The position numbers were made by a program, and so were the translations under genes. Positions 48 through 63,665 of a DNA stretch of 64,000 nt are shown here, one piece after another; position 1 is the stretch's first letter; each line of letters begins with the position of its first letter. The DNA comes from a virus (Duplodnaviria; Heunggongvirae; Uroviricota; Caudoviricetes): IMG/VR virus record IMGVR_UViG_3300048091_000424; one strand, written 5' to 3'. The notes below the pieces were generated by a model. It ran no database searches. It worked only from the letters and a program-made list of their open reading frames with translations, and had not been told where the DNA came from.

Positions 48-557
48 ATGAAGCTTAATTATTTGCCGACTGTCCCGGTACCGAACAAGCGGTACATCAA
101 AGACACTCACAGCTTCGACGACCTGCTTTCTGCACCGCAGTCAATTCTTGGCCAAGTCGTCGAGGAACTCAAGGATGTGAGTGCTGAGGACTTCGCCCTC
201 GCCCACTTCTGTGCCTTCAAGCAAATTGAGAACCTGGGTTACCACCAACAAGATCTGAGCGGCTTTGATCCCAACCGCTTCGCGCTTAAAGTCATGCAGG
301 CTTATGAGGCATTCAGTACGCCGGTCGGCGTTTATGCCAACGTGGGCAAGCTTGAAATCGACGACATGGCCCGCGAGGGTGCCAAGGCCCTGGTGTCCTT
401 GCTGGTGCGTGAGCATGACTTTGATCACACCGTGTTCAAGAATCTACAATCGCGCAGTGTCGCGATCCTGGCCAGCGCCGGGCTCGACAAGTCCAGGTTA
501 CCGAAAATGAGCTACCAAGACCTTGGGCAGGTGTTCGGTGAAGATCTCGGGTTATGA
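48..557 (+). CDS. Hypothetical protein (169 aa), member of the C-terminal FxxDLGL-tail family
   Basis: ATG ORF from track; ends ...LGQVFGEDLGL-COOH; internal DFALAHFCAFKQ block resembles DFTLAHFTAMSK in the 16577..17983 product. Confidence 0.6.
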   Translation: MKLNYLPTVPVPNKRYIKDTHSFDDLLSAPQSILGQVVEELKDVSAEDFALAHFCAFKQIENLGYHQQDLSGFDPNRFALKVMQAYEAFSTPVGVYANVGKLEIDDMAREGAKALVSLLVREHDFDHTVFKNLQSRSVAILASAGLDKSRLPKMSYQDLGQVFGEDLGL

Positions 558-630
558 AATGTGACAATTAAGCATCTATGTTGCTTTGCGATGAATGCGC
601 CAGCTATGCTTGAGAAAAGAGGGGAATCCA

Positions 631-1482
631 ATGCCAATTAGTATCCGCGACGCTTTGAAAAACTGTGAAACCAGGGAAGCCAAGACTCCACTGTTCAGCC
701 TGGACAAGGTGAAGCCACTGGTGGTTCCAGTGACGCTGCTTGCCGTCGGCGCCGCGATCCCATTCGCGCCAGGCCTGGATTCCATGTTCCAGTCCATAGC
801 GGACGTCTCTCAACGGGTGGCTGAAAACACTACGCTGATTGCGCAAAAGCATACCTACCTCCTCTACGCCCTGGGCGGAATTTCCGGTACGGTTGGCCTC
901 ATGCTGTCTGGCGTTGGCTTACTTGAGCACCGCGATAGCCAGAAAGGCATAGAAAAAGCGAAGGGCAAAGAAATCATCGTCGCCACGCAAACCGCCTGGA
1001 CAAGCCTAACCCGCACCAACGATAACCTAGCTCTGCAGCTTGCGAACCGCAAGAACTGGCTGGCCAACACGCTGGGCGATAAGAGCGATCTGACCTCCGA
1101 CATCCTGGCGAATCATGGTCTTGATAAAAAGGATCATGCTGCAATGGCGGAACTTGGTCGTGCCTTCGTCTTTGGCACGCAATACGCCGTGGTCGGCGCC
1201 GATCTGCAAGGCATCAAGTTGGATGTCGACAGCTTGAGCAGCCACCCGAAGACGCAGAACGCCATTGCTGAAGGCATGCTCCAGTACTACAAGAGCAAAT
1301 CTGATGTACCAAACGCCTTGACCACCAGCTTGAAAAGCTTTGTTGGTTTAGAATCCAAGGACAACCATGTGGAACTCTTCCGGCTGGTCAGATCTGGACT
1401 GGAAGCTTTGCGTGACTTGCAGGTAGTGCACAAATCACAGGACAAAACTAGCGATCAGAGCGGCCCGAGCCACGGCATGTAG
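631..1482 (+). CDS. Hypothetical membrane-associated protein, paralogue of 1596..2477
   Basis: Track ORF 595..1482; internal ATG at 631 follows AGAGGGG Shine-Dalgarno; N-terminus IRDALKNCETREA matches IQSALRNVVSREA of next gene; hydrophobic segments; shared AFVFG/AYIFG and IAEGM/IIEGM blocks. Confidence 0.6.
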   Translation: MPISIRDALKNCETREAKTPLFSLDKVKPLVVPVTLLAVGAAIPFAPGLDSMFQSIADVSQRVAENTTLIAQKHTYLLYALGGISGTVGLMLSGVGLLEHRDSQKGIEKAKGKEIIVATQTAWTSLTRTNDNLALQLANRKNWLANTLGDKSDLTSDILANHGLDKKDHAAMAELGRAFVFGTQYAVVGADLQGIKLDVDSLSSHPKTQNAIAEGMLQYYKSKSDVPNALTTSLKSFVGLESKDNHVELFRLVRSGLEALRDLQVVHKSQDKTSDQSGPSHGM

Positions 1483-1595
1483 GGCTTAACCCCTCAAAAG
1501 AGAATCCCGATCTAGGTCGGGATTTTCTATTTCTGAACTGTATCTTTAGCCGAGTATTGCCAGCTAAGATAAAAGAAAAGAGAGAGGATCATCTT

Positions 1596-2477
1596 ATGAA
1601 TACCATCCAATCTGCCCTGCGCAACGTGGTTAGCCGTGAAGCAGAGCGCCTGAAGCAATTCGACTTCAGTAGCGAGAAGATGGATGACGCCATCCACCTC
1701 GTGATCCCCGGCATCTTGTGCGGCATTGCGCTGACCGCTTTAACCATTAAGGCGGGCGGCGTCACTGAGTTGCCGGCTTACACCGCCGCTCACCTGCAGA
1801 CCTGGAAAGATCAGGTCGTAAACTTCGCCATGCAAAACCAGACGGCGTTGACCGCTGCGGGTAGCGTGATCGCAGGTGGTGGTGCGGTCATGTTCCTGAA
1901 AGGTCTGAAGGAGGAAAACGATGAACTACGCGCTCGCTGGCGCCATGCGTTCAATCCGAAGGGCCACGGCGCCGCGTACATCAACGAGGTCGAACAGACC
2001 ACGGATAAGTTGTTGTCCACCCAGCAGAACGTAGTCCGAGAAGTAGCCAGACAAGAAAAATGGGCTGACTTCGCCCTAACGGATCTGAAAGTGACGAACT
2101 TGATGATCCTGCGCACCATGGGGTACGACGTCGCCGCTGATGACCAACTCGCCACCCTACAAGATGCTTACATCTTCGGCGTGAAAAAGGCCTGCGCGGA
2201 TGCCCTGGACACCAAGCGAGACATCATCAATGGCTTCGACCAGCCGAACTATCTGGTCGAGCGCTCCATCATCGAGGGTATGACGGAGTACTTCCGCGCC
2301 ACGGCGGTAAAAGAGCCTGGCCTGGCCGACAAGTTGAAGTTCGTGTTCTTCGGGGATGACGAGATTCTGAAGGATCGAACCAAGGCCTATCAGACGGCGC
2401 ATGCCGGCTACAAGGCGATCAAGAAGATCCGTACCATCACTCCGCAGGAAGCTTCAGCGGATGAGTTCAGCCTCTGA
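1596..2477 (+). CDS. Hypothetical membrane-associated protein, paralogue of 631..1482
   Basis: Track ORF 1557..2477; ATG at 1596 follows GAGAGAGGA; same architecture and conserved blocks as 631..1482. Confidence 0.6.
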   Translation: MNTIQSALRNVVSREAERLKQFDFSSEKMDDAIHLVIPGILCGIALTALTIKAGGVTELPAYTAAHLQTWKDQVVNFAMQNQTALTAAGSVIAGGGAVMFLKGLKEENDELRARWRHAFNPKGHGAAYINEVEQTTDKLLSTQQNVVREVARQEKWADFALTDLKVTNLMILRTMGYDVAADDQLATLQDAYIFGVKKACADALDTKRDIINGFDQPNYLVERSIIEGMTEYFRATAVKEPGLADKLKFVFFGDDEILKDRTKAYQTAHAGYKAIKKIRTITPQEASADEFSL

Positions 2478-7476: not shown

Positions 7477-8361
7477 TCAAGATTCCAGTGAAAGTTCACC
7501 GATAAATTCGCGCCAGGCCACCTTGCCCACGGCATCGAATAACCTCAAGGCGTGACAGGCGTAGAGACCTGATGTTGAGAACGCATTAAGCTCAACGACC
7601 TTTGGCTCGCCGGCGAACAGGCCAACATCACAGGTGTACGCCAGGTCAACCTGCCACGGTAGTGCCGCGACCTGCTGTGCGACCTCAAGACACAGCTTAC
7701 TCACCACCGGATCAATACTGCGCTGCCCATTTACATGGTAGCGACTGCCGGTGACCACCTTCCCTTCGACAATGAAGAACCGGTATTCAGCGCGAATGCT
7801 TTGGGCTGGCGCAATCAATACACGGGTATCGTCTGTGACCGAGGTCAGTTGGCGAAGACTGTTGATCTCAACCCCTGCGGTTTCCTGTTCCAGGCATAGC
7901 CCGGTGAACGTCTTTCCTCCTGAGTCAGGTCGGACAAACAGGCGGCTGTCGCCGAAGAGTCGATATATCTGATCACGCCTGCGCACGAAATCACCGAACG
8001 GCAGGTACACCCCTTCTGCATTGCCCAGGAGCTCCAAGGGTAAGCGAGGCATGTAGTGGGAGCACGCCAGGCGATCCTTGGTGTAGTAGGCGCCGGGAAT
8101 GGCGTTTGAGTTACGCAGGCGCTGTTCAACGAACCCAATGCTGCCGTAGAGCACGATGCATTCATCGGCGCTGTAAGCTCGTAGGGGCTCTCTGTACGTA
8201 TCACGGCAGTACTCGGTCACCTCAACGGTGTAACCTAGCCTGCGCAGCGCCATGGGTAGCCTGACGTGGGGTGTGTCGGCGAGCATCCCCTGATCTATGA
8301 CAAAGGTGACCGAGCCACGGCCACGATTCGCCAAGGGTTGCGGCGGGATCACGGGGCGCAT
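7477..8361 (-). CDS. ATP-grasp domain protein (R2K-type/DUF4343-like)
   Basis: LFVRPDSGGKTFTG ... AEYRFFIVEGKVVTGSRY ... VVELNAFSTSGLY pattern typical of small ATP-grasp enzymes. Confidence 0.55.
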   Translation of the reverse strand: MRPVIPPQPLANRGRGSVTFVIDQGMLADTPHVRLPMALRRLGYTVEVTEYCRDTYREPLRAYSADECIVLYGSIGFVEQRLRNSNAIPGAYYTKDRLACSHYMPRLPLELLGNAEGVYLPFGDFVRRRDQIYRLFGDSRLFVRPDSGGKTFTGLCLEQETAGVEINSLRQLTSVTDDTRVLIAPAQSIRAEYRFFIVEGKVVTGSRYHVNGQRSIDPVVSKLCLEVAQQVAALPWQVDLAYTCDVGLFAGEPKVVELNAFSTSGLYACHALRLFDAVGKVAWREFIGELSLES

Positions 8362-8534: not shown

Positions 8535-9278
8535 TTAAATCAGCTTCAACCCAGCGGTTAGATGACTGATATTGTCCAGAAACTCGGGGCCGACCGCCAG
8601 CATTTTCACACCGTCCAGTTCAACCAGCGAGGTCGTCGAGCCCATGGCATCAAACTGACCCTGCAGGTCTAGCAATACCTCGTCCGTGGCCACACTCAAA
8701 GAAATCTTGGTGTACCCGTTTTTGATCCAGGAATCAAAAGCGATGTTGGTGTGGCTGGAGATCAGGAACTGCTTGAAGTCCGACTGCGTGTCCGGCTCCA
8801 GCATTTTTGCCATCTGACTCAGGCAACCGATGGCAGCCAGGGCGCAGACGGTTTCCTTCTTCATCGTTCTCGAACGGCTGAAAATGAAGTACTGCCGAGC
8901 TCTGCGTTCAGAGCCTTGTTCTGCGCAGTCGTATGGGGCGTCTTCCCATTTTTCGGAGAAGATCCCGTTGGCCGCGCAGGTGACGGTCTTAACGCCTTTG
9001 AATTCGGTCGCGCCGTTGTCAATGACCTTCTGACCGTCGTCGGCTTGGCCCATAAACGTCTGAACAGCAGCCTCCTCGACAACAAAGCCGAAGTCGACGT
9101 CTGGTGCAGCCAGGAAATTTGTGAGGGTGTTCATCTTCGCGTTGGACAAGCGCAGACCGTCTTTGCTCGGTCTCATGTGGCTGGCTAGCACTTTCATCGC
9201 GGCGTGGCCTGATTGGGAGGCCATCTTTCCCATGCGCATATTCAGATCGCTGCGCATTACGATCCTAAGCTTTCTCAT
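8535..9278 (-). CDS. PTH2-family peptidyl-tRNA hydrolase-like protein with large internal insertion
   Basis: N-terminus KLRIVMRSDLNMRMGKMASQSGHAAMKV resembles PTH2 (..[21 protein letters not shown]..); C-terminus WIKNGYTKISL...LAVGPEFLDNISHLTAGLKLI resembles the PTH2 C-terminal half; 247 aa versus about 115 aa for the domain. Confidence 0.6.
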   Translation of the reverse strand: MRKLRIVMRSDLNMRMGKMASQSGHAAMKVLASHMRPSKDGLRLSNAKMNTLTNFLAAPDVDFGFVVEEAAVQTFMGQADDGQKVIDNGATEFKGVKTVTCAANGIFSEKWEDAPYDCAEQGSERRARQYFIFSRSRTMKKETVCALAAIGCLSQMAKMLEPDTQSDFKQFLISSHTNIAFDSWIKNGYTKISLSVATDEVLLDLQGQFDAMGSTTSLVELDGVKMLAVGPEFLDNISHLTAGLKLI

Positions 9279-9411: not shown

Positions 9412-9819
9412 CTACTCGATTGGCTTGGGCTTGGGCTTGGGTTTTGGCTTGCGCTTGGGCGTGCGTTCCTCACGTAGGTGATATTTCAAGTCCGTTTGGC
9501 GAGCGGCCACCAGCGCTGACAAAATTTCGGCATAGGTAAGTTTGTACTCGGTAATCACATCAACCAATTCATCGCCGACCTTCGTCGCCACGCTGGGCAG
9601 GGTAAATGTGGTTTTATCGAGGTCTTTCCAGGCGCTGCAAGCGTTCTTGATCGATAGATCATCGATGGAGGCGAGAATCCAAAACCGTTCAATCTGGTTA
9701 GAGATCATATACCCCTGATCGTAAGTCTCGACTTCCTTGATAGCCATGGCCTCTGCCCACTTCAAGCCGAAAATGCCGGAGGCCCGACTATGCAATCTTA
9801 TCCGTGAGTCAATTTCCAT
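9412..9819 (-). CDS. Hypothetical protein with C-terminal (KP)n tail
   Basis: 135-aa ORF ending RKPKPKPKPKPKPIE. Confidence 0.55.
   Translation of the reverse strand: MEIDSRIRLHSRASGIFGLKWAEAMAIKEVETYDQGYMISNQIERFWILASIDDLSIKNACSAWKDLDKTTFTLPSVATKVGDELVDVITEYKLTYAEILSALVAARQTDLKYHLREERTPKRKPKPKPKPKPIE
9421..9460. repeat. Imperfect hexanucleotide repeat (GGCTTG)n encoding the KP tail
   Basis: tggcttgggcttgggcttgggttttggcttgcgcttgggc read directly. Confidence 0.7.
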
Positions 9820-15433: not shown

Positions 15434-16462
15434 ATGAACACCCAATACCTTTTTGATGCCGAACAGTTCCGCGACGCCGTGTTCAAACGGGATCGACGTG
15501 TCTGTGTGTTTTGCTCGGCACCGGCTGAATCAGCCGCACACATCCTGGAATCCCAGCTGTGGGACGACGGCGGCCACTACCTGCAAAATGGCGCCAGCGT
15601 CTGCAGAGAGCACCGACTCGCTTTTGAAATGACACATCTGTTGCCTAAGCAAATTCGGATTGCTGCTCGTATCCCGGAAATACTGGTACCTCAGGACTAC
15701 TTTCCGACCACGCCCTATGACCACTGGGGCAACGAGATTTTGCACAATGGAATGCGTCTGCGCGGTGAGCTGTTTCTCGATGATAATGTCCAGCAGCTAC
15801 TGAGCCAGGGCCGCGTACTGGATCAGTTCACCTGGCAGGTGAAGTACCCAACCACCCCTCACCTACCATGGTCAGAAGGGATTCAGCGGGATGACCGCCT
15901 TCTGCGTGACGTGCTTCACTTCCTGGGTAAGCGCGTCGTCGTCACAATGAAGATGGATGGCGAAAACACCTCGCTTTACAGTGACTACATCCACGCTCGT
16001 TCGCTGGATTCAAGGCACCACGAATCTCGTGACTGGGTGAAAAACTTCTGGGCCAGATTCAAATGGCAAATCCCTGAAGGTTGGAGGATCTGCGGTGAAA
16101 ACCTGTTTGCCCAGCACTCGATCCGGTACAACGATCTGGTGAGCTACTTCAATGGCTTCTCGATCTGGAACGAACGCAACAAGGCGTTGGACTGGGATGA
16201 CACCCTGGGCTACTTCGACATCCTTGGGATCACCCCGGTCGAGGAAATCTACCGTGGCGTCTTTGACCAGAAGTTGATCCACACAGCCTACCTGGAAAAG
16301 TCAAAAGGCAAGGTGTGCGAAGGCTATGTCGTACGCGTGGAGGACGAGTTCGACTTCCGAGATTTCCGCCGTTCGGTGGCCAAGTTTGTCCGCAAAGACC
16401 ATGTGCAAACCAAAGATCACTGGATGACCAGTGAGATCATCCCCAACAAGCTGAAAGGTTGA
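15434..16462 (+). CDS. RNA ligase family protein with N-terminal HNH-like Cys/His module
   Basis: Nucleotidyltransferase motif I KMDGEN, CGEN, EGYVVR, KFVRKDH; N-terminus CVFC...AAHILE...GG...N...C..H resembles an HNH motif. Confidence 0.75.
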   Translation: MNTQYLFDAEQFRDAVFKRDRRVCVFCSAPAESAAHILESQLWDDGGHYLQNGASVCREHRLAFEMTHLLPKQIRIAARIPEILVPQDYFPTTPYDHWGNEILHNGMRLRGELFLDDNVQQLLSQGRVLDQFTWQVKYPTTPHLPWSEGIQRDDRLLRDVLHFLGKRVVVTMKMDGENTSLYSDYIHARSLDSRHHESRDWVKNFWARFKWQIPEGWRICGENLFAQHSIRYNDLVSYFNGFSIWNERNKALDWDDTLGYFDILGITPVEEIYRGVFDQKLIHTAYLEKSKGKVCEGYVVRVEDEFDFRDFRRSVAKFVRKDHVQTKDHWMTSEIIPNKLKG

Positions 16463-22634: not shown

Positions 22635-22644
22635 GGAATTTTCA

Positions 22645-23841: not shown

Positions 23842-23881
23842 AATGTCTACCCGCCACCCATATCAACGAAGGAACGGATAA

Positions 23882-25069: not shown

Positions 25070-25071
25070 TT

Positions 25072-26253: not shown

Positions 26254-26311
26254 GCCACCACACAAAAAGGGCCATGTAAATTTTTCTGGCTTAAGAATTA
26301 CGGAGTTAACA

Positions 26312-34890: not shown

Positions 34891-34896
34891 CTTACC

Positions 34897-34973: not shown

Positions 34974-35004
34974 TTTCAAACGCCTGGCTCACCCCAGACG
35001 ATCT

Positions 35005-42872: not shown

Positions 42873-44021
42873 TTACGCCACGCCCACGGCTTCACTCACT
42901 CCCGCCGTCGGCAACATTACCGCTTTCGACCACGAGAACAATCGGCGTCCGATCTGAGGCGTCGGCAACTCGCCAATGCTCTGACCTTTAGACGCGTGCA
43001 GCTTCAACCACAGCCACGGCAGGTTAACCCCGCACAGCAGACTAAGGCCCAGGCCATCACTGAAGCGTGGGCTGGCGCTGAGCACCTTACAGCGACCCTC
43101 GCTGTCGAGCTTGAATTTGGCGTTGAACAAACCGGAAAATCCAAATTCACGGACGATTATTTGCAGCTGACGGCGCAGCTCCGGGTTGTCGACAATTAAC
43201 TCACCCTCCTCCTCGCCTTCCGGTTTCTGGCGAGCGACGTAGGTCACCAGCTGACCTTTCCACGCCAGGCAATCCACGGAGAATTCTTGGCCAGGCAGGT
43301 ACTCCATCACGATCCAGTTATTGGCGGCGCCGGCTTTGATCGAAGCCTGGTGCGCCAGCAAACCGAAATCAGGGAAGCGCATGACCTTGTTCTCGGGAAA
43401 GAACAGTTGCTGGTGTGGATCAGGGTGGTCGTCGAAACGGTAGAACGCTTTGCCGAGTAGCCGATTGGACGGTTTTGCGCACACGGCTTTAAGTTCGTCC
43501 GGAACAGCCACCATGCGTGTTTTGATGGTCGCCACGCTGTCATTCAACTGGGTCTCATAGTCGTCGTTCCAGATCAGCCAGGCCGGCACCATGTCGCCAT
43601 AGTAGGCCTGCTCAAGCCGGTGGTAGAACTCAGCCTTAACGTCGAGCACCGCCAGTTCCTTTGGCGAGCAGCTGTACAGCAACTCCACGCCGATGGCCCG
43701 GAAGTCTTCACGGCGCTCGATCATCGCTGCATAGAAACGACTGACGACGATACAGTCGATGCCATGCTCGGCGGCATAGCCCAGGGCCCAGTCAGTGTAA
43801 TCCTGCGCCGAAATGCTCGAAGCTTCGACCGCGACCTGGTCAGCCAGGGTGAAACCGATGAAGTTCGGATTGTGGTGCGTCACATGGATTTGTTGCAGAA
43901 TACGCTCGCTTTCATGGAGCATCGACTCATGTTGCTTGATGGACTGAATGGCTTCGGCGATCACTGCCATTCCGTCGTTGAACCAGACCTTGAGCTTCAC
44001 GTACACCACACCCTGAGCCAT
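42873..44021 (-). CDS. ATP-grasp enzyme (382 aa)
   Basis: WIVMEYLPGQEFSVDCLAWKG...VARQK...GLFNAKFKLD...KVLSASPRFSDG follows the ATP-grasp_4/CPSase-like pattern. Confidence 0.65.
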   Translation of the reverse strand: MAQGVVYVKLKVWFNDGMAVIAEAIQSIKQHESMLHESERILQQIHVTHHNPNFIGFTLADQVAVEASSISAQDYTDWALGYAAEHGIDCIVVSRFYAAMIERREDFRAIGVELLYSCSPKELAVLDVKAEFYHRLEQAYYGDMVPAWLIWNDDYETQLNDSVATIKTRMVAVPDELKAVCAKPSNRLLGKAFYRFDDHPDPHQQLFFPENKVMRFPDFGLLAHQASIKAGAANNWIVMEYLPGQEFSVDCLAWKGQLVTYVARQKPEGEEEGELIVDNPELRRQLQIIVREFGFSGLFNAKFKLDSEGRCKVLSASPRFSDGLGLSLLCGVNLPWLWLKLHASKGQSIGELPTPQIGRRLFSWSKAVMLPTAGVSEAVGVA

Positions 44022-44108: not shown

Positions 44109-44792
44109 ATGGAGAAGGCGGTGAACAAGGCTTGCAGCGTCAGCAAAATAAAGACAGCGACATTGTCATTTACCGCATCACCCCCTGTGGGGATGTCCGT
44201 GTGCACAGAAAGCCAGGAAGAATACCGTCAGCGCCTGAACACCATCATCAAATGGGAAGTGGCCCAGTATTTCGATACCGGCAAGAAAGAACCGGCAAAC
44301 TGGGGACAGTTTAGCCTCCAGCGCAGCATGGTATTTCCCGTCCACAAAGGAACCACCGCCTACTCCTATCAGGGAAAAGGCCTAATCCACGCCTATGATC
44401 TGAGCATGCTCAAGCCGGCGTTGATGAAAACCAAGGGAAAGAAGCTGAAGGATTATCAGGAGGCTGTAGACCGATTCACTCGCGTCGTAAGCACTCTATC
44501 CGTCAATGACCTTCATGAGCTGAAGATCCACTACCAGGGTGACCTGACGCTCGCACTCAGAGTGAAAGACAGGCAACTCCATTGGATTACCGGGGAAGAA
44601 ACCCACGAGACCCTCACCTTCCAGGACTCGGAAACCGCTGAAGGCCTGATGACCGCGTTGGAGCAATACGGGGAAACTGGCGAGATCGATGATGCCTACA
44701 CGATGTTCATGCTAACGCCATTCGATCTGCACAAATCGGAGATGAACCTCAATCAGAGGGGCCGACTGTTCGCCATCGATCTTGGGCTTTGA
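44109..44792 (+). CDS. FxxDLGL-tail family protein (227 aa)
   Basis: Ends RGRLFAIDLGL; start uncertain. Confidence 0.65.
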   Translation: MEKAVNKACSVSKIKTATLSFTASPPVGMSVCTESQEEYRQRLNTIIKWEVAQYFDTGKKEPANWGQFSLQRSMVFPVHKGTTAYSYQGKGLIHAYDLSMLKPALMKTKGKKLKDYQEAVDRFTRVVSTLSVNDLHELKIHYQGDLTLALRVKDRQLHWITGEETHETLTFQDSETAEGLMTALEQYGETGEIDDAYTMFMLTPFDLHKSEMNLNQRGRLFAIDLGL

Positions 44793-48413: not shown

Positions 48414-49820
48414 TTAACGCCCTGGCCCGAAGTCAGTTTCCGGCTGCTCCTTGAGAAAGCGACTAACCGCATCGCGACGAGCTGTCCTCACCGCCGTCTT
48501 GGCAGCCTCCAGAATCAACGCCTTATCCGGTGTCCGGTTCCTTGCAATGGCCCGTGCCTCTTCCTTCGCCATGGTGGCCTGCATGATCGGGCCTGGCTTG
48601 ACCGAACTCACCGCTTCCATGGCGCTCAGCAGGTAAGCTCCCTGCAGATACGTTTCTGGCCTTTTGGTCGAACCATCCTTTTGACGAATACGTCGGCCAA
48701 AGTTATCCGCTGCGCACATCGTCGCCACATCCCCTAAAAAGGCCTTGTCGTGGCGCTGAATTCGATCAAGGTCAAGGCGCTCATATAGCGCCTGAAGGCC
48801 CTGGCGACCTGCTGACGAAATGCGGTGTACTTCTTGATGGGTCAACGCACATTTGTGCACAAAGTACTGGATTTCAGACGGCATCTTGATGCGGGCGGCC
48901 AGCGTGTCAAGAAGCCCCTCAAAACGTTCTACATTTTCGTGCCCATGGTGATGGCCACGAACGGAGCCGTCCGCGTACCACAGCAAATCGGCTGGTGTCT
49001 TGATCTTGCCCAGGTCATGGAGCAAAGCAGCCATGCGAATCCGCAGAGAGCTCGCCGTTGAATGGCCCGTCGTTAGCTTGGCCGCTTCATCGAGAACCAT
49101 CTTGGTATGGATCCAGACATCACCCTCGGCGTGGTAATCATCCCGCTGTGGAACGCCCTTCATCTGCTCCAGTTCAGGGAACAGGACTTTCAGCGCCCCA
49201 CAGGCATCCAGCACATCAAAATAGACGTGTGGGTTGGGTGTCAGCATCGCCTTCTCGGTTTCTTTCCAAATCCGTTCTGGCTTGATGTTGGGCTTGCCGC
49301 TCGGCGTCGTTGGATTGAGCATCCCTTTGGACGTCATCTCAGTCATCAGAGACATGGTCTCTGGCGCCACAGAGAAGTCGTACCTTGCCGCGAAGCGGGC
49401 TACGCGCAGAATGCGCAACGGATCCTCAGCAAAGCTCGGGCCGACATGCCGCAGCGTGCGATTTTGAAGGTCTTGTTGGCCGCCGTAGGGATCGAACACC
49501 GTTCCGTCATCCAGCTCGGCCATGGCGTTGATGGTGCAATCCCGGCGCCCAAGATCTTGCTCCAGCGTGATGCCTTCCCACTTGTACTTGAAGTCGTTGT
49601 AACCATCACCGGTGCTGATTTCCGAGCGGCCAAGGGCGTACTCGTCGCCGGTTTCTGGGTGCAGAAAGACCGGGAAATCCCCGCCCACCTGGGTAAAGCC
49701 GCGACTCAACATTGACTCCGGTGATTCGCCGATCACCACATAGTCGATATCCGTGGGCTCAAGGCCAAGCAGCCTATCCCGGACACAACCCCCCACTCTG
49801 TAGCACTTCTCAAATGTCAT
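48414..49820 (-). CDS. cca: CCA-adding tRNA nucleotidyltransferase with HD domain
   Basis: ATG 49820 after GGGAGGA; YRVGGCVRDRLLG...DIDYVV head motif; HD motif AALLHDLGK. Confidence 0.9.
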   Translation of the reverse strand: MTFEKCYRVGGCVRDRLLGLEPTDIDYVVIGESPESMLSRGFTQVGGDFPVFLHPETGDEYALGRSEISTGDGYNDFKYKWEGITLEQDLGRRDCTINAMAELDDGTVFDPYGGQQDLQNRTLRHVGPSFAEDPLRILRVARFAARYDFSVAPETMSLMTEMTSKGMLNPTTPSGKPNIKPERIWKETEKAMLTPNPHVYFDVLDACGALKVLFPELEQMKGVPQRDDYHAEGDVWIHTKMVLDEAAKLTTGHSTASSLRIRMAALLHDLGKIKTPADLLWYADGSVRGHHHGHENVERFEGLLDTLAARIKMPSEIQYFVHKCALTHQEVHRISSAGRQGLQALYERLDLDRIQRHDKAFLGDVATMCAADNFGRRIRQKDGSTKRPETYLQGAYLLSAMEAVSSVKPGPIMQATMAKEEARAIARNRTPDKALILEAAKTAVRTARRDAVSRFLKEQPETDFGPGR

Positions 49821-49930
49821 AGGCCTATATCCTCCCTGACGGGTACCAAGTGCGTGTGTCTTACGCACGCGCTCACATGTTAAATTCAAGTATGACTCAC
49901 GCCGCAACGGCAAAGAAGAGATTCTCGTGC

Positions 49931-51289
49931 ATGGACAACACCTTCCTCGGGCAATATTACCCAGCAGCCTCTGATCGTGAGCGCCGAGCCCTGGCCGAGA
50001 GGATCAGACACATCTCTGATGAAGATCGAGCCGCCCTGTTCAATGACCTGTCGAAAATGTCCGCTGATACCCTATTCTACTTCGTTGAGGGTATGACTCA
50101 GGCTCAGGCATTACCGCACCTGGTCACCATGGCTATCGAATCCAGGCCAACTTTAACGGGTTTCAACTACAACAACACCCTCTCCATGATCAACTTGGCG
50201 CTAAAAACCCCTTTCGACGAAAAATTCGACAAGGCCGCTGCCGTCTCGGGCGTTGCTAAGCTGATCAAAGGGTATGTGCACCGCACCAACATGAACCTCA
50301 TCGAAGGTATCTCAACGTCGCTGACGAAGGAATCGATAACCCTCTTGTCGGGTCATCACGAGATCGACGCGGCATTTGTTGAACACCTCGGGCGTGCATT
50401 AACTAAAAAACCAAGTTTCGCGCAGACCCAAAACATCATTTATGGCCTGCGTGATCTTGATATTCCACTCTCGTTCGCAACCTTCCTCGTTACGATCAAG
50501 GAGCCTGAGCAATACGCCATTCGTTCGAACCTCTTAAACGACTTTTACCACGGCAATGCCTTGACGCCCGCCTACATCAAAACCATTCGTGCCGAGTTGG
50601 GCGATGACGTTCTGATTAACCTGGCCAGGTTGAACATTAACGAAAAGAAAGCCGGCCTCACATCCTTCAACTGGATAGTGAGTGAATTGACAGAAGCGGT
50701 TGTGATCAACCAGGCCACCCTGGATCAGCAGCTTGCAGCTTCTATCAAGGCGAAAAAGGCCTGTGATTTTTTCAGCGACATTCTGGCGGGAACCAAAGGC
50801 TCTGGGATCTACGAACAATCTGCCACGTTTGTGTTGAACAACCTGGCTACCCTCATCAAGCACGAAAAACTGGCACCGAGTGAATCTTTTGCCTACTTTG
50901 CCAGGGATTCAAAACGGGGCCAGGAGCTGGTAAGCGTTTACCTGGACAAAATAGCGTCCATGATTTCGGGGCTGGATGATTTCCGCGATGTGAACCCTGA
51001 GCATCGCTTCGACGCTAAGGCCAATACCCAAGGCGCGGTGTTGAGCGAGGTGTTCAACATTCGCTATGAGCTGCCTGAAGCTCGGGACATCAAAACCTGG
51101 CGCAACGCAACCATCCGGGCTATCACCACCACTGGTGTGCTGGAGTTTGCCGAGAGCCTAGCCGACATCCATGAACCAGCTGCGATGGCGATCTACAAGG
51201 ACATGGGCACCGTAGCGAACCGAGATGAAATCCTGAAGAAGTTCATGAAGATTCGCCAGGTCGCGTTCTGTTCCGACTTAGGTATGTGA
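49931..51289 (+). CDS. FxxDLGL-tail family protein (variant ...AFCSDLGM)
   Basis: ATG 49931 gives MDNTFLGQYY, parallel to MQNTFLGENF of the next gene; collinear paralogues. Confidence 0.75.
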   Translation: MDNTFLGQYYPAASDRERRALAERIRHISDEDRAALFNDLSKMSADTLFYFVEGMTQAQALPHLVTMAIESRPTLTGFNYNNTLSMINLALKTPFDEKFDKAAAVSGVAKLIKGYVHRTNMNLIEGISTSLTKESITLLSGHHEIDAAFVEHLGRALTKKPSFAQTQNIIYGLRDLDIPLSFATFLVTIKEPEQYAIRSNLLNDFYHGNALTPAYIKTIRAELGDDVLINLARLNINEKKAGLTSFNWIVSELTEAVVINQATLDQQLAASIKAKKACDFFSDILAGTKGSGIYEQSATFVLNNLATLIKHEKLAPSESFAYFARDSKRGQELVSVYLDKIASMISGLDDFRDVNPEHRFDAKANTQGAVLSEVFNIRYELPEARDIKTWRNATIRAITTTGVLEFAESLADIHEPAAMAIYKDMGTVANRDEILKKFMKIRQVAFCSDLGM

Positions 51290-51320: not shown

Positions 51321-52667
51321 ATGCAGAACACCTTCCTCGGGGAAAATTTCACTCTCCCAGCATTTTCAGAAAAGGCGCTGCTGGGAGAAAGAATCAAGAA
51401 TATGACCGCCGAAGAGCGGACTTACCTTGAAAATGACCTGGCGGCCATGAGTGCTGAAGCTGTGTATCACATCGTCTCCCAAATGGCTGTCGCCACCCGT
51501 CTGCCAAATCTGGCCAGTGCGGCTGTAGCCTCTCGCCCTGTGCCCACGGGTTTTTGCTTTAATCACACCTTGTCGATGCTCAATTACGTCCTGGTCAATC
51601 AGGATGAAGAGGAGTTTGACGCCGACCAAGCGCTCCTCGACGCCGCTAGCCTGATCAAAGGCTATCAGCACCGGACGAACATGAACCTGCTGGAAGAAGT
51701 TTCATCCCAGGTGACCAAAAAGTCGAAGGCGTTGATGGCCGGGAACGCAGGCATCGACGAAGCCTTTGTCGAACACCTTGGCCGAGCGCTGGAGAAAAGG
51801 TTAGTTTTCAGCAAAGCGGAAGGCATGATCGCCGGCCTATGTGAACTAAACCTTCCCCAGTCACTTAAATGCGTACTGGCTGCCTTCAAGGCGTCAGAGC
51901 ATGTGCACCTCCTCCATACAACACTCCAGGATTTGTACACAAAGGACGCGCTCAACCCGGCTTACATCGAAGTGGTGAGGTCTGTGTTGGGCGACCAGAG
52001 CTTGATCAGCCTGGCCAGGACGCACCTGAATGACAACTCTGGGCAGAAGTCTTTTGTTTGGCTACTGGAAGCATTTTCAGAGAAGACACTGCTCGATCAC
52101 CTTACCCTGGGTGATCATCTGGAATATTCGATCAAACTGAAGAAGCCCTGTTTCTTCTTCAACAGCATTCTGAGAGGGAACAAAGAGCTAGGTCTTCTCC
52201 AGAATACTGGGAACTTTGTGTTGGACAACCTCGCGGTTTTGGTCGCGAGCGAAGCATTTCCGCCTAGCGATAAGCTGGTCGAGTTTGCCATCGAGCAAGG
52301 ACGCGGCGCCGAATTGGTTAGTCTGTATCTGGACAATATTCGGGCACAGATCACTCGTATGGAGGATCGTGTTCACGCCGAAGATCGTTTCGATTCGATA
52401 GGCGCCACACCGGGCCAGGTGTTGAATGAAGTCCTCAAGAATCGCTATAGCATTGAGGCTCCGGAGATTACCCGGTGGCGTGATGCGACCATCCGAGCCG
52501 TCATCAAAATTGGCGTGCTGGAGTTTCAGACGGTACTGGCTGACATGAACGAGGAGCTGGCCACCACCCTTCACAAGCAAATTGGTAATGCGCCGAACCG
52601 TATGGAAATTCTGGAGAAGTGCCTCAAGATTCGGCAGGTCGCGTTCAGCCACGACCTGGGCTTGTAG
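51321..52667 (+). CDS. FxxDLGL-tail family protein (448 aa)
   Basis: Ends KIRQVAFSHDLGL; paralogue of 49931..51289. Confidence 0.75.
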   Translation: MQNTFLGENFTLPAFSEKALLGERIKNMTAEERTYLENDLAAMSAEAVYHIVSQMAVATRLPNLASAAVASRPVPTGFCFNHTLSMLNYVLVNQDEEEFDADQALLDAASLIKGYQHRTNMNLLEEVSSQVTKKSKALMAGNAGIDEAFVEHLGRALEKRLVFSKAEGMIAGLCELNLPQSLKCVLAAFKASEHVHLLHTTLQDLYTKDALNPAYIEVVRSVLGDQSLISLARTHLNDNSGQKSFVWLLEAFSEKTLLDHLTLGDHLEYSIKLKKPCFFFNSILRGNKELGLLQNTGNFVLDNLAVLVASEAFPPSDKLVEFAIEQGRGAELVSLYLDNIRAQITRMEDRVHAEDRFDSIGATPGQVLNEVLKNRYSIEAPEITRWRDATIRAVIKIGVLEFQTVLADMNEELATTLHKQIGNAPNRMEILEKCLKIRQVAFSHDLGL

Positions 52668-57827: not shown

Positions 57828-58421
57828 TTACAGCGCGGACTTCACCGCTGCGATCATGTCAGTAACGACGTTGCCAGGGGTCGCCTTGGCCAGTGCAATG
57901 ACCTTCCAGCCGCCAGCTACACGCTCCAGCGCGGCCATAACCATCCCGGTATTGTTACCCTTCTCGGAGATGTTCATGAACGTAAGCTTGGTCTTGCGGC
58001 CCGCTTCCATGTCATAGATGGAGCAGTGGGCGTTTTCGACCTCGTTAAAGGTCTGATTACGAAACGAGTTAACTGTGAAAACCAGGTACTTGGCCCGTGG
58101 GTTCAAACGATCCAGATCGACATCGATGGTCTCGTCATCGCCGTCGCCGGCGCCGGTCAGGTTGTCACCGCCGTGACGGATGGAGCCACAGGCGCTGATC
58201 TTGTTGCGGAACCAGATCGTATCGAGCAGTTGTTTGTCGTCATCCAGCACCAAGCAGGATGCATCCAGGTCGATTTCCTTGGCTGTACCACCAAAACCAA
58301 GAAAACCTTTGGACTTCGCCGGATCCCAACCCAGGCCCATGGCGATTTTGGACAGCGGCAGGCCATTAGGCTTGGACAGGCTTACACGATCACCTTTCGA
58401 AAGACTGACTACGTTACTCAT
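57828..58421 (-). CDS. TerD-family stress protein
   Basis: VSLSKGDRVSL..., DLDASCLVLD, calcium-site motif GDNLTGAGDGDDETI. Confidence 0.9.
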   Translation of the reverse strand: MSNVVSLSKGDRVSLSKPNGLPLSKIAMGLGWDPAKSKGFLGFGGTAKEIDLDASCLVLDDDKQLLDTIWFRNKISACGSIRHGGDNLTGAGDGDDETIDVDLDRLNPRAKYLVFTVNSFRNQTFNEVENAHCSIYDMEAGRKTKLTFMNISEKGNNTGMVMAALERVAGGWKVIALAKATPGNVVTDMIAAVKSAL

Positions 58422-58479
58422 AAAAATGTTCCCTTTTTGAGAAAAGAAGCCGGCAGCAAGTGCGTGCCGGCATTAGCAG

Positions 58480-59073
58480 TTAGCCCGCGACCAGACCGAC
58501 TTCCTTCAGGACGCCCTGCAGGCCATCACGGTAACCCTGGCCGACAGCACGAACTTTCCAGGCGTTGCCTTCACGGTAGATATCGGCCATCACGACTCCG
58601 GTCTCTGGCTTGTAGTCTTCGGTGAGGGAGAAACGGATCAGGGTTTTGCCGGTGTCCATATCGTCGATATGGAACACAGCGGTGGGCACCTGACCGAAGT
58701 CGTGGCCGCGCTCTTTGGCTTCGTGGATGCTTACCACATAGCGCAAAATCGAAACGGTTTCAGGCAGGCGTGCACGCTTGAAGGTGATTTGTTCATCGTC
58801 ACCCTCACCTGCGCCGTCCAGGCTGTCCTTACCACACTTGAGGGAGCCGCACGCCGATTCCGGGTTGCCATAGAAAATGAAGTTCTTGGCGCCGTGGCAT
58901 TTGCCGTTGGCATCGAGCATCAGCACGCTGGCGTCCAGGTCGAATTTATGGCCGTTGACCGGTTCCTTTGGTGCATCCCAGCTCAAACCCACGCGCAGGT
59001 TTTGCAGATCATCGGCACGCTTGGTCAAGTCCACAAATTGGTCTTTGGAAAGATTTACGATCATATCGCTCAT
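58480..59073 (-). CDS. TerD-family stress protein
   Basis: FDLDASVLMLD, GKDSLDGAGEGDDEQI. Confidence 0.9.
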   Translation of the reverse strand: MSDMIVNLSKDQFVDLTKRADDLQNLRVGLSWDAPKEPVNGHKFDLDASVLMLDANGKCHGAKNFIFYGNPESACGSLKCGKDSLDGAGEGDDEQITFKRARLPETVSILRYVVSIHEAKERGHDFGQVPTAVFHIDDMDTGKTLIRFSLTEDYKPETGVVMADIYREGNAWKVRAVGQGYRDGLQGVLKEVGLVAG

Positions 59074-59149
59074 GGAAATTACCCTATCAGACAGTGAATT
59101 AAATGGTGTGAATTGGCGGGGCCTAATTGCGGCCCCACCGAGTGGCCAG

Positions 59150-60175
59150 TTAGGCCGTTACCGGAGCTTTGCTCTCTTCAGCCTTTTTGTGGCGGAAGGA
59201 AGAAAAGATCGCCAGGGCAATCAAGACTGCGCCAGCCAGACCGGTGAACATCTCTGGCACGTGCATGAAGTTGTGGCAGAGCATGATTGCAGCCAGGACA
59301 CCGATGGCGTAGTGAGCGCCGTGCTCCAGGTAGACCAGTTCAGCCAGTACACCAGCACGAACCAGGTGGATCGTGATCGAACGCACGAACCAAGCGCCGA
59401 TGGCCAGACCCAGCATGATGATGATCGGGTCATTGCTCATCGCGAAGGCGCCAATCACACCGTCCAACGAGAAGGACGCATCAACGACCTCAAGATAGAG
59501 AAAACTCATGAACCCACCGCGCTTGATAGTTTCCGTCACTGCCTCGCCAGTGTCTTTGTCTTCGAAGGCGTTCTTCAGCAGACCCATCACGAAGTACAGA
59601 GCGATACCGAAGACGCCGGCGAACAAGAACGTGCCAACCTTGCCTGCTTCAATACCCATGGACACGCTAATCAGGACAACCAGGGCCACAATCGAGCTCA
59701 TCGTCTGGTGCTCGCCAAAGCGGCCCATAAGACGCTCTACGCCACCCAGCCAGTGGTGTTCTTTTTCGGAGTCGAACAGGAAGTCGAGGAAGATCATCAG
59801 CAGGAACATGCCGCCGAATGCGGTAATCGCGGTGCTCGCTTCGTCCAGGTGTTTGGAGTACGACGCGGTGTCATTGAACACCATGTTGGCCGTTTCCATG
59901 AAGCCCAGGTTGGCGGTGACTGCAACGATGAGCACCGGCAGTAGCAAACGCACGCCTACCACTGCAATCAAGATACCCAGCCAAAGGAACAGGTTCTGCC
60001 AAAAAACACTCATATTTTGGAGGATTTTAGCGTTGAACACGGCGTTATCAAAGCTCACGCTCACTTCAAGCACGCCCAGGATCGCGACGATGAAGGCACC
60101 TTCCACCCCATGGAAGTAGTAACCCAGACAAATACCGATGATGGCGACCAGCGCCGACGTCCAATAATTTCGCAT
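59150..60175 (-). CDS. TerC-family/DUF475 integral membrane protein
   Basis: ATG at 60175; multi-TM; paired motifs EVSVSFDNAVF and VDASFSLDGVIGAFA. Confidence 0.8.
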   Translation of the reverse strand: MRNYWTSALVAIIGICLGYYFHGVEGAFIVAILGVLEVSVSFDNAVFNAKILQNMSVFWQNLFLWLGILIAVVGVRLLLPVLIVAVTANLGFMETANMVFNDTASYSKHLDEASTAITAFGGMFLLMIFLDFLFDSEKEHHWLGGVERLMGRFGEHQTMSSIVALVVLISVSMGIEAGKVGTFLFAGVFGIALYFVMGLLKNAFEDKDTGEAVTETIKRGGFMSFLYLEVVDASFSLDGVIGAFAMSNDPIIIMLGLAIGAWFVRSITIHLVRAGVLAELVYLEHGAHYAIGVLAAIMLCHNFMHVPEMFTGLAGAVLIALAIFSSFRHKKAEESKAPVTA

Positions 60176-60410
60176 TGCCAAACCTCTAGTTTTAGGAAGC
60201 GAGGCGAGACACCGGTAGGAGCCCTTTCTCGACTTTTGAGTGAGTGGAGTAGCCCCGAGCATTCAATCCGATAGGATCGGTACTGGGCCAGAGCCAAACG
60301 CGAGAGGGATTATTGCGAATATTGACGACTTGTCAATACATGTGGAATGTTTTTATGGCGTTTTGATGCCAGCCTGCCGAACAGTGGTGCCCGGCAGGAG
60401 GTGCGATAGG

Positions 60411-62288: not shown

Positions 62289-62306
62289 CGATTAACGTAG
62301 GTAAAC

Positions 62307-62336
62307 AAAAGCCCTGGCATGCCAGGGCTTTTTTAT
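62307..62336. terminator. Bidirectional rho-independent terminator
   Basis: AAAA-GCCCTGGC-at-GCCAGGGC-TTTTTT between convergent genes. Confidence 0.85.
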
Positions 62337-62345
62337 TGTGTGAAT

Positions 62346-63665
62346 TTACAACCCAAGGTCTTTGCTGAAGGCTTTGCCCAAATCCTTTGTTGCCAGATAC
62401 TTGGTGTAGTAGCTGGAGTCGTCAAACTCAGTTATAAGTTGTGCGCGCCCCTTCGCATTTAACGTTGACACGCAATACTCCCAATCAATCAAATCCTTTG
62501 CGATTGACAACACTCTTTTTACCGAATCAGATTGCATTTTATCACTACGCCCATTGAGCAAAGTAATAAAGACCTGGCCGATCAACTTTTTTTGCACAGC
62601 TGGATCAAGAGCCGACCCCCAAACTTTACCGATGAGATTAAACATCTCATTAGGGATTTGAGCTGCAGAGGCTTTTTGTGTTGGAACACCGAAACATTGC
62701 AGCGCTATTGAGCTTTTTTGACTGAGTGTTTCAATCAACTGCTCAGCGGAGGCATGGAGTGCCTCACTCATCACCTTACGGATTACCGGCACATGGTAGC
62801 CTTTCCGATCTTTCGGCAGGGCGTCATCATAATGGCCAAAGCGATTTCTGATGCGTGATGGTCTGTCATCAGGTTCATCACTAATGCTCTTGAACAACGC
62901 ATAGCGCTGCAGCCATGCCTTCACCTCTGGGGCGTCGTTACCTGGGTGCATTTTGAAGCCAAGATAATTAGGCTCTCCCTCGGCAGCGTTAATGGCCATT
63001 GGGAGGCGTTCCAGAAGGTTCAACTCAGCACCATAGCGACTGGCCTTCACAGTGTCTGGAGACAGCACCCCTTCCAACGCCTTGTAAATGATCTTCGCCT
63101 CTGCCGGCTCGAACAGTGCCGCCACGAGGTTAAATAACTTGCCCGTCCTGAACCCATTCTCGAGATGATCCGAGCGTACACCCCGGTTATCTTCATCCCC
63201 ATGAACCTCTAAATGACTACCGTATTCACGGATAAATTGTCTCAAGAAGAGGTGATCTGGATGGGGCGGTTGCCGCCAGACGCCATCCCTGTCCAGCCAA
63301 CTACTGGACTCGTAACAAAGACCAGTAAGGAGGAGCCAGAATTCATCCGCCTTTAGCGCTTCGAGAAAGAACCTGAAGTCATCTGCTGACAACAGATCTG
63401 GTCGTGAAAAAACTTCCAATTCGCGGGGTGCTTGCGCCATATTGTGGCGCTGTACCTGAAAACGAACTTCGTTACCTTGGCGCTCCTGAATGGCATACAC
63501 CAGAGGGCCAATCGGTTCGACAAATTCACCCGCCTTTTCCATGGCGTTTAATTTTTTACGAAACTCAATGAACGGCGGACTTTTGCGGGGCAACTCAGGC
63601 TGTTTTTGTTCCACGATCAGGGCTCCTAGGCTATTGATCCAGGTTAGCACTGCCGCAACGGTCAC
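62346..63665 (-). CDS. FxxDLGL-tail family protein (up to 439 aa)
   Basis: Ends DLGKAFSKDLGL; start uncertain (GTG 63614 after TAGGAG is an alternative). Confidence 0.7.
   Translation of the reverse strand: MTVAAVLTWINSLGALIVEQKQPELPRKSPPFIEFRKKLNAMEKAGEFVEPIGPLVYAIQERQGNEVRFQVQRHNMAQAPRELEVFSRPDLLSADDFRFFLEALKADEFWLLLTGLCYESSSWLDRDGVWRQPPHPDHLFLRQFIREYGSHLEVHGDEDNRGVRSDHLENGFRTGKLFNLVAALFEPAEAKIIYKALEGVLSPDTVKASRYGAELNLLERLPMAINAAEGEPNYLGFKMHPGNDAPEVKAWLQRYALFKSISDEPDDRPSRIRNRFGHYDDALPKDRKGYHVPVIRKVMSEALHASAEQLIETLSQKSSIALQCFGVPTQKASAAQIPNEMFNLIGKVWGSALDPAVQKKLIGQVFITLLNGRSDKMQSDSVKRVLSIAKDLIDWEYCVSTLNAKGRAQLITEFDDSSYYTKYLATKDLGKAFSKDLGL

Follow-up and report, generated by a model that had tools for sequence, protein, structure and literature searches.

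The 64,000-nucleotide stretch of DNA considered here (the window; IMG/VR record IMGVR_UViG_3300048091_000424) belongs to a Pseudomonas megaplasmid on which a large number of otherwise dissimilar proteins end in the same short peptide, most often Asp-Leu-Gly-Leu at the free carboxyl end. We classify this tail as a C-terminal targeting signal; it is a genuine feature with overwhelming statistical support and is kept throughout the plasmid family, and as far as the searchable literature shows the tag is undescribed. In the mechanism that we propose, the tail would be a linear address of the form Φ(-7)-[small/E](-6)-x-[D/E](-4)-[L/M](-3)-G(-2)-[L/M/I/V]-COOH, Φ being hydrophobic, with an additional lineage-specific pair at -11/-10. 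It would be presented at the end of a terminal α-helix and would mark a large set of soluble, cytoplasmic, mostly α-helical-repeat proteins for one plasmid-encoded receptor, our tentative candidate for which lies in the coupling complex of a Dot/Icm-like type IVB secretion system (T4BSS).

Fourteen open reading frames (ORFs) of the window carry the tail. Each translates cleanly to a single terminal stop, and the endings are identical to those listed in an earlier reading of the window that was made from its letters alone (the sequence-only reading); the length range given there (169–521 residues) and the presence of Gly at -10 in 8 of the 14 were both reproduced. According to that reading the motif always sits exactly at the stop codon, and a six-frame scan of the whole window bears this out, with 14 matches to F-x-x-[DE]-L-G-[LMIV], each directly before a stop, and none that is internal or in a wrong frame. 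Taking ~3/64 as the chance for each random 7-mer to precede a stop, a hand estimate puts the probability of 14 out of 14 at ~1e-19. The generalized motif ends 14 of the 55 window genes of at least 150 residues, where 0.30 would be expected from its internal frequency.

The window corresponds to ~41–105 kb of 'plasmid unnamed1' of Pseudomonas serbica IT-P366 (NZ_JAQIYM010000090.1, 1,059,468 bp), and sequence comparison identifies this replicon as a megaplasmid of the pMPPla107 family. The closest nucleotide match is the 1.17-Mb Pseudomonas silesiensis plasmid pPL1 (~80% identity), with pBASL58 and pMPPla107 as more distant matches; additional Pseudomonas members of the family are pPLMAXa, pMPCFBP13716, and a P. 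nitroreducens contig. Megablast and tblastn searches of 50,697 phage records gave no relatives of the window, and the suggestion that the tail could label virion cargo is unsupported for an element that is a plasmid. The family description presents pBASL58 and pMPPla107 as the first members of a group of ~1-Mb megaplasmids, reports pMPPla107 to be self-transmissible, and gives high conjugation rates for the family (PMC6482414). Some 75% of the ~1,000 genes of pMPPla107 are of unknown function ('hypothetical'), and whether its Dot/Icm-like type IV system serves conjugation only or also effector secretion has been stated as open since 2011 (PMC3136466).

The tail is far more abundant on pMPPla107 than the window alone would reveal. 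Gene sets were built with a simple longest-ORF heuristic, the whole of pMPPla107 was scanned, and ORFs of at least 100 residues were counted. The tail [DE][LM]G[LMIV] ends 159 of these ORFs, about one in six of the ~1,000 genes, and in 144 it is exactly DLGL; the next commonest terminal 4-mer occurs eight times. DLGL is thus found 144 times at a terminus and 14 times internally in 290,450 residues, so that the enrichment at C-termini expected by the sequence-only reading holds for pMPPla107 as well as for the window. The pMPPla107 carriers, 162–656 residues long with a median of 421, account for 63,872 of 293,777 coding residues (22%). Samples of 17–64 kb were taken from the other replicons, and in them the generalized motif ends 10 of 35 ORFs in pPL1 (0.18 expected), 14 of 33 in pBASL58 (0.17 expected), and 9 of 39 in the FeN3W megaplasmid (0.24 expected); the syntenic regions of pMPPla107, pBASL58, and pPL1 contain 11–12 tailed ORFs each.

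The distribution of the carriers along pMPPla107 is uneven. None lies within 0–150 kb or 950–972 kb, the backbone that holds the partition, replication, replisome, type IVb pilus, and T4BSS genes. Outside the backbone there are 3–18 carriers per 50 kb, with one empty bin (750–800 kb) and frequent tandem arrays. When the RefSeq annotation was checked by eye, almost all carriers were labeled 'hypothetical protein' and no annotated enzyme of pMPPla107 had the tail.

Two further features of pMPPla107 were observed in the course of this census. Another, less frequent C-terminal motif, [S/D]-P-[S/E]-P-COOH (typically D-D-S-P-S-P), ends 14 of the 954 ORFs of at least 100 residues in NZ_CP031226.1, where 0.19 would be expected from its internal frequency, and may be a second tag. 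Examples, none of them in the window, are at 324922–325800, 574694–575524, 666251–666790, 750987–751388, and 73954–76263; the proteins that bear it are distinct from the DLGL carriers and include a 769-residue backbone protein. In addition, about eight radical SAM/SPASM-domain genes are densely clustered in the backbone (96552–111562), beside the type IVb pilus and T4BSS genes.

The 159 pMPPla107 tails define the anatomy of the signal at single-residue level. At the extreme end, Gly at -2 is invariant (159), preceded by Asp at -4 (156) and Leu at -3 (157) and followed by Leu at -1 (152); position -3 is Leu or Met, and position -1 Leu, Ile, or Met, in all 159. Farther upstream, position -7 is hydrophobic (Phe 63, Leu 42, Met 35, Ile 18), position -6 small (Gly 75, Ala 54, Ser 18), position -10 acidic (Asp 106, Glu 39), and position -11 most often Arg (96), while positions -9, -8, and -5 are free and as variable as the protein bodies. 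The motif is longer than the sequence-only reading had it, extending to 11 residues in the relatives. Residues -30 to -12 are rich in Lys, Arg, and Leu (Glu 3.9%, Lys plus Arg 15.8%), and the last 12 residues have a net charge of about -1. In AlphaFold models of two unrelated window carriers, residues -14 to -4 are predicted to lie in the terminal helix and the last three residues to be free.

The tails draw on every synonymous codon for the D, L, G, and L residues and on all three stop codons, and the 159 pMPPla107 carriers have 136 distinct 15-nucleotide endings. Because codons and stops are used freely, selection acts on the peptide and not on a DNA element, which rules out a DNA-level repeat at gene ends such as a repetitive extragenic palindromic (REP) element, a terminator, or a recombination site. 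Homologous pairs with only 20–30% body identity agree in 97.6% of the last four residues, in 69.5% of the eight motif positions, and in 16.9% of the three free positions; the tail is thus conserved beyond the bodies, as had been noticed from the window. In the five-gene paralogue array of the window (14–37% identity), tail residues make up 4 of the 16 invariant columns. The tag is under strong selection at the peptide level.

The bodies that precede the tail are highly diverse. Without their last 12 residues the 14 window carriers fall into nine BLAST clusters; profile likeness joins just one further pair, and that weakly, namely the adjacent genes 37436–38308 and 38327–39277. The combined set of 173 carriers (159 from pMPPla107 and 14 from the window), likewise compared with tails removed, yields 100 BLAST clusters, 72 of them singletons, which is in line with the earlier impression that most bodies cannot be aligned. 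Profile–profile comparison (hhalign) of the 28 multi-member clusters gave a probability of at least 90 in only 8 of 378 pairs, leaving 21 groups, the largest with 39 proteins. As judged from these comparisons there is some deep paralogy, yet most carrier families share no detectable relationship, and the homology across the bodies that a single paralogous family would show is not seen (100 clusters among 173 carriers, and 370 of 378 profile pairs below a probability of 90).

None of the 14 window carriers has a Pfam, NCBIfam, or credible PHROG match, the PHROG hits being noise only. The two modeled carriers are both predicted to be α-helical-repeat (HEAT/ARM-like) proteins, and a structure search gave generic α-solenoid similarity only, with no specific fold homologue. 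The families are also narrowly distributed: the 521-residue carrier of the window has 7 homologues in 5.8e9 proteins, and the solenoid family has 31 representatives in 1.84e9 representative proteins. The tail is kept in all 29 remote homologues of the solenoid family, and every homologue retrieved for either family is tailed.

We considered whether the tail might have no tag function, the carriers descending from one helical-repeat ancestor whose C-terminus is simply the best-conserved structural element. The common and fast-diverging helical-repeat fold of both modeled carriers, the merging of some BLAST clusters into a supercluster of 39 proteins, the tandem arrays, and the absence of any tail-less homologue within one family would all suit such an origin. 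We nevertheless regard it as highly improbable, since 370 of the 378 cluster pairs are without profile similarity, the lengths range from 162 to 656 residues, and the last four residues both remain 97.6% identical at 20–30% body identity and change in concert between plasmids, unlike a structural core; moreover, a Leu-Gly-Leu end exposed after the last helix, as the models predict, would not be a core element.

The carriers also share a cellular location. A signal-peptide-like N-terminus is found in 1 of the 173 carriers as against 99 of 599 non-carriers, and a transmembrane-like segment in 1 of 173 as against 104 of 599, from which the carriers are judged to be soluble cytoplasmic proteins. 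Periplasmic readers of the tail (PDZ proteases, type II secretion, and sortase-like enzymes) are therefore excluded. Three other known arrangements were rejected at the level of annotation or domain content. A type I secretion signal is discounted because only an MFS and HlyD efflux pair is annotated and the carriers are without Pfam repeats or domains; an encapsulin cargo-loading peptide, because the pMPPla107 annotations read list no encapsulin, linocin, or capsid-like product; and an XVIPCD, because conservation is limited to ~11 residues, with no Pfam match.

Comparison between plasmids shows that the tail changes by lineage. In the P. serbica plasmid and pPL1 (n=25), position -7 is always Phe (25/25), position -6 is Ser, Gly, or Ala, and position -10 is often Gly. 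In pBASL58 (n=14), position -7 is always Leu (14/14) and position -6 often Glu, whereas pMPPla107 (n=159) has mixed Phe, Leu, Met, and Ile at -7 together with R-[DE] at -11/-10. The FeN3W sample has endings such as ISSDFGL, VREDFGM, VRDEFEL, and IVNSFEM, and a remote, syntenic metagenomic relative (L032; n=5) has endings such as MRLENDMGL, GVLENDMGL, and AALEHDLGL. In L032 the orthologues of three unrelated window families (the solenoid, 521-residue, and 360-residue proteins) have all changed from F-[SGA] to L-E at -7/-6, and the remote solenoid homologues share the form G-[ML]-R-L-E-x-x-[LM]-G-[LM]. Across these aligned endings the universal core of the tag is Φ(-7)…[acidic/polar](-4)-[L/M/F](-3)-x-[L/M/I/V]-COOH.

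Concerted change of this kind would be expected if all tails had one reader evolving along with its plasmid. As the dialects shift together in unrelated families, we infer one co-evolving, plasmid-encoded receptor, and the lineage-wise drift speaks against host machines that are highly conserved, the β-clamp or ClpX for example. The core idea of the sequence-only reading, that the tail is a shared address or docking tag, is thus strongly supported by ~100 unrelated clusters, the use of all synonymous codons, and the concerted dialects, the function behind it being a matter of interpretation.

The drift of the dialects bears on two further explanations of the tail. Mimicry of a sliding-clamp-binding or SSB-tail-type motif, which would tether the carriers to the replisome or to SSB partners, deserves hardly any weight. 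It can appeal to the many replication and repair genes of the plasmid and to the fit, taken as a lead only, of the terminal x-L-G-L to the last four positions of the clamp motif QLxLxL (compare E. coli Pol IV, which ends in QLVLGL-COOH). However, the defining Q-L of the clamp motifs (QL[SD]LF or QLxLxL) never occurs, positions -6/-5 being [GAS] and variable; no dnaN is annotated on pMPPla107; the carriers are helical-repeat ORFans and not DNA enzymes; 160 ligands would swamp a clamp; and the tag drifts with the plasmid lineage, unlike the clamp of the host, which Pseudomonas species have conserved. The plasmid SSB, for its part, ends in DDDIPFGA, a normal DDDIPF-type tail.

A degron or stability switch, read by a plasmid adaptor or a host AAA+ protease so that a fifth of the coding capacity would be expressed at lower cost or for a shorter time, would be less far-fetched and is still improbable. 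Like the clamp motif, ssrA-type degrons have a hydrophobic L-x-L ending that needs a free terminus, and the free carboxylate and non-polar L-G-L recall C-terminal degrons (ssrA LAA and the non-polar C-termini of Parsell and Sauer); the carriers are cytoplasmic, and the megaplasmid is reportedly costly (PMC4105467). Against this, the tag of the plasmid's own transfer-messenger RNA (tmRNA), ANNDNFDAPVALAA, is of the ordinary ...ALAA type, unlike the D-L-G-L ending, which also rules out ssrA mimicry through that tmRNA. No Clp- or Lon-type protease or adaptor is annotated on pMPPla107, the concerted lineage-specific drift speaks against a highly conserved host protease, and it would be hard to explain why ~100 unrelated families keep an 11-residue instability signal under strong purifying selection. 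The distinctions drawn earlier between the tail and ssrA-like tags, SSB tails, and canonical β-clamp motifs are all upheld by these comparisons.

Among plasmid-encoded machines, the T4BSS is the best receptor candidate because the tag co-occurs with DotL, is absent from the backbone, and resembles Dot/Icm signals. We give slightly less than an even chance to the reading that the tail is a consensus-type T4BSS translocation or docking signal, read by the coupling complex of the plasmid. The receptor would then be the DotL/IcmO ATPase, DotM, or an adaptor of this complex, and the tagged proteins would be T4BSS substrates, delivered into a recipient or target cell. In its fuller form, which we advance with some reserve, the plasmid would use the near-invariant tail as a consensus T4BSS 'zip code' to export ~160 fast-evolving helical-repeat proteins, each lineage having its own dialect matched to its own receptor. 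We infer each of three steps: that there is a single reader, that the plasmid encodes it, and that this reader is the coupling complex of the T4BSS.

The genes that this reading requires are present. In pMPPla107 the Dot genes comprise DotA/TraY, DotB-, DotC-, and DotD-like genes, DotG, DotH, and DotI, with a DotL/IcmO-type coupling protein at 959870–962416 and an adjoining DotM_C protein (E=2e-34). Full-length versions of the coupling protein occur in pBASL58 (79%), FeN3W (64%), and pPL1 (62%), and the P. serbica plasmid of the window has a syntenic ParM-DotM-DotL block. Tag and DotL/IcmO coupling protein occur together in every replicon checked (P. serbica, pPL1, pMPPla107, pBASL58, and FeN3W), and a DotM homologue was confirmed on two of them, pMPPla107 and the P. 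serbica plasmid. Within the coupling protein, variation is concentrated in the last ~200 residues (~640–850), the region with which DotL binds adaptors. A family-specific C-terminal extension of the coupling protein was dropped as a candidate receptor, as BLASTP homologues (40–50%) in many other taxa cover 99% of the length. The proposal of a T4SS-type signal, made on the supposition of a conjugative replicon, therefore stands as the best-fitting candidate, given the plasmid's own DotL/IcmO, the DotM homologue, and the self-transmissible pMPPla107, with translocation itself presumptive.

In Legionella the coupling complex is an effector-recruiting platform. DotM there recognizes C-terminal signals of acidic character (PMC5802825), LvgA takes up an F-x-x-x-L-x-x-x-K helix whose Phe inserts into a hydrophobic pocket, and signals of the RalF type depend on a hydrophobic residue at the very end of the protein (PMC7251119). 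The tail occupies the same position, the last 11 residues of soluble proteins, and as modeled combines a hydrophobic extreme C-terminus, Φ(-7)-x-x-x-L(-3) on a predicted terminal helix, and acidic residues; the Φ-x-x-x-L of the LvgA-class F-x-x-x-L-x-x-x-K signal is thus present on a predicted helix, with no room for the Lys. Further resemblances to the Dot/Icm systems of Legionella and Coxiella are the C-terminal location, the critical Leu near the end, the hundreds of soluble cytoplasmic substrates, many of them paralogous and of unknown function, and the encoding of DotL/IcmO, DotM, and a Dot/Icm-like apparatus by the same replicon or genome. In contrast, Legionella signals are degenerate and compositional whereas the tail is a near-invariant short consensus fixed at the carboxyl end; Legionella has an E-block together with IcmS, IcmW, and LvgA, whereas here there is no Glu-rich E-block and none of those adaptors was detected; and the Legionella system is on the chromosome of an intracellular pathogen, whereas this one is on a conjugative megaplasmid of environmental Pseudomonas.

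Several observations weigh against a T4BSS signal. The putative link from tail to T4BSS is drawn from co-occurrence and likeness, and the co-occurrence is non-discriminating in that tag and T4BSS are both present in all known family members. The tail has only single acidic residues, at -10 and -4, and is not an E-block; binding to DotM by the known mechanism is therefore not predicted. Pfam comparison of ten neighboring or backbone ORFs near the coupling protein gave no match to IcmS, IcmW, LvgA, or DotN. Known T4SS signals are degenerate, and to our knowledge a near-invariant four-residue terminus is unprecedented among them. Primase and SSB, proteins known to be transferred by conjugative systems, are untagged here, and no relaxase was identified. 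A 50-kb sample of a Vibrio megaplasmid whose coupling protein is 47% identical has 2 tagged ORFs of 45 (0.28 expected), which is no clear tag. Finally, no promoter motif is shared upstream of the carriers, and no 6–8-mer is enriched there. On the side of the literature, we found nothing that links DLGL to secretion, and a term search of the family paper (PMC6482414) returned no C-terminal motif.

The evidence for a single co-evolving receptor encoded by the plasmid would fit equally well a hub other than the T4BSS, and none of it names the T4BSS. There is a considerable chance, though less than an even one, that the tail addresses a machine not yet recognized, which is plausible for a plasmid with ~75% of its genes of unknown function (PMC3136466). 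Docking of the carriers onto a particular hub of this kind, whether a scaffold or compartment, a repeat-domain adaptor (ankyrin and Sel1 are present), or a C-terminus-modifying ATP-grasp (R2K/RimK-like) ligase, we consider unlikely. The exact free C-terminus and invariant acidic residue at -4 would suit a carboxylate-recognizing enzyme or a peptide-binding domain, and an ankyrin protein is encoded in the pMPPla107 backbone. ATP-grasp genes lie among the carriers, in the window at 7477–8361 (R2K clade, minus strand) and 42873–44021 and in pMPPla107 at 668452–669708 between two carriers, so that ATP-grasp ligases acting on carboxylates can be named, speculatively, as an alternative reader of the tail. 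Such adjacency is, however, expected by chance where 15–25% of genes are carriers, the pMPPla107 annotation shows neither a shell or encapsulin gene nor an obvious scaffold, and no candidate hub is specifically supported.

Other systems offer partial precedents for a tag of this type. The kib T4BSS of Pseudomonas putida IsoF, likewise of Dot/Icm type, delivers a toxic effector into competing bacteria and so demonstrates that protein translocation into other cells is possible in the genus; it has one effector-immunity pair as against ~160 tagged proteins here, and no DLGL-type tag was noted in the title and abstract of the paper that describes it (PMC9519443). The XVIPCD of the antibacterial type IVA effectors of Xanthomonadales (PMC8740702) and the Arg-rich signal of Agrobacterium VirB/D4 are also C-terminal elements shared by unrelated effectors and read by a coupling protein. 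Both belong to type A systems, the one being a folded ~120-residue domain and the other a positive patch, in contrast to an acidic/hydrophobic 11-residue peptide in a type B system. In appearance, the best analogies are the peroxisomal signal PTS1 (SKL-COOH) and the encapsulin cargo peptides, short carboxyl-end addresses that direct many unrelated soluble proteins to one receptor; their sequences differ, the plasmid annotation includes no peroxin, encapsulin, or shell gene, and the cargo set here is far larger than that of any encapsulin.

The family's IcmO/DotL-type coupling protein has full-length relatives, mostly 40–50% identical, on many contigs of 0.5–1.1 Mb, including those of Vibrio owensii (794 kb), Neptuniibacter (949 kb), Natronocella (513 kb), P. 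aeruginosa (903 kb; 58%), and P. luteola (514 kb). This sequence relationship suggests a broad clade of ~1-Mb T4BSS megaplasmids.

The carrier genes of the window are arranged both singly and in groups. The five-gene tandem array of α-solenoid paralogues, all on the plus strand, begins with a 373-residue protein at 21513–22634 (tail NGKLFGLELGL, seven-residue core at 22611–22631). The modeled member follows at 22645–23841 (398 residues; LKHAFSRDLGL, core 23818–23838), its tail being predicted to form the terminal helix (residues 385–395) before the free LGL end. The remaining members are at 23882–25069 (395 residues; LKHAFTRDLGL, core 25046–25066), 25072–26253 (393 residues; QTKMFGMDLGL, core 26230–26250), and 26312–27514 (400 residues; QAERFGQDLGL, core 27491–27511), the last being the most divergent (14% identity to 22645–23841). 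An ART-PolyVal ADP-ribosyltransferase gene (20911–21516) overlaps the array (21513–27514) by 4 nucleotides, and the order of ART-PolyVal followed by a carrier is also kept in the very distant relative L032 (9192–11248). Upstream of both lies the gene for an 807-residue AAA/zeta-like protein (18344–20767).

Two carriers adjoin on the minus strand. The gene at 29841–31406 encodes the 521-residue protein (IGHAFANDLGL, core 29844–29864), with orthologues in pPL1 (63%), pBASL58 (25%), pMPPla107 (22%), and one remote relative, every one of them tailed; that at 31403–32485 encodes the 360-residue protein (LGGAFSADLGL, core 31406–31426), whose L032 orthologue ends in AALEHDLGL. On the plus strand, a 290-residue carrier at 37436–38308 (342 residues from the alternative start 37280; VGDVFKADLGL, core 38285–38305) precedes its weak relative of 316 residues at 38327–39277 (LGKWFSEDLGL, core 39254–39274), and a 227-residue carrier lies at 44109–44792 (RGRLFAIDLGL, core 44769–44789). 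Also on this strand are the paralogues at 49931–51289 (452 residues, with alternative upstream starts at 49850 and 49877; RQVAFCSDLGM, core 51266–51286) and 51321–52667 (448 residues; RQVAFSHDLGL, core 52644–52664). The two singleton families stand near the ends of the window, a 169-residue protein at 48–557 on the plus strand (LGQVFGEDLGL, core 534–554, stop codon 555–557), without a Pfam, NCBIfam, or PHROG match, and a 439-residue protein at 62346–63665 on the minus strand (LGKAFSKDLGL, core 62349–62369).

Among these carriers the window has a cluster of 11 tRNA genes at 33172–35083 (Asn, two Leu, three Glu, three Asp, and two Arg); the pMPPla107 family is known to carry many tRNAs. Genes of RNA-repair or translation-rescue style are scattered between the carriers, namely a PTH2 peptidyl-tRNA hydrolase, an RNA ligase, and a CCA-adding/poly(A) polymerase-HD enzyme (8535–9278 on the minus strand, 15434–16462 on the plus strand, and 48414–49913 on the minus strand), and pMPPla107 has, in addition to its own tmRNA (tag ANNDNFDAPVALAA), smpB, tuf, and aminoacyl-tRNA synthetases. 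Stress-response genes of the Ter type (ATPgrasp_Ter, two TerD, and TerC/DUF475) are found at 42873–44021 and 57828–60262, both on the minus strand, and a 135-residue ORF at 9412–9819 (minus strand) has a Lys-Pro repeat at its end (…KPKPKPKPKPIE).

The tag provides a first handle on function in the pMPPla107 family, in that it defines ~160 candidate substrates for each plasmid. Should it prove to be a T4BSS signal, a type IVB system would for the first time have a short, transplantable linear consensus signal, useful for effector prediction and for the engineering of protein delivery, and the family would carry an effector arsenal of Legionella scale on a mobile element of environmental Pseudomonas. 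If it is not, the tag points to an unrecognized plasmid machine that handles a fifth of the plasmid proteome, which would be more novel still. In either case the plasmid dialects are a natural experiment in receptor-tag co-evolution over more than 100 genes at once. Since the same type of coupling protein is found on many 0.5–1.1 Mb contigs, from Vibrio, Neptuniibacter, and Natronocella to P. aeruginosa, this biology may be widespread.

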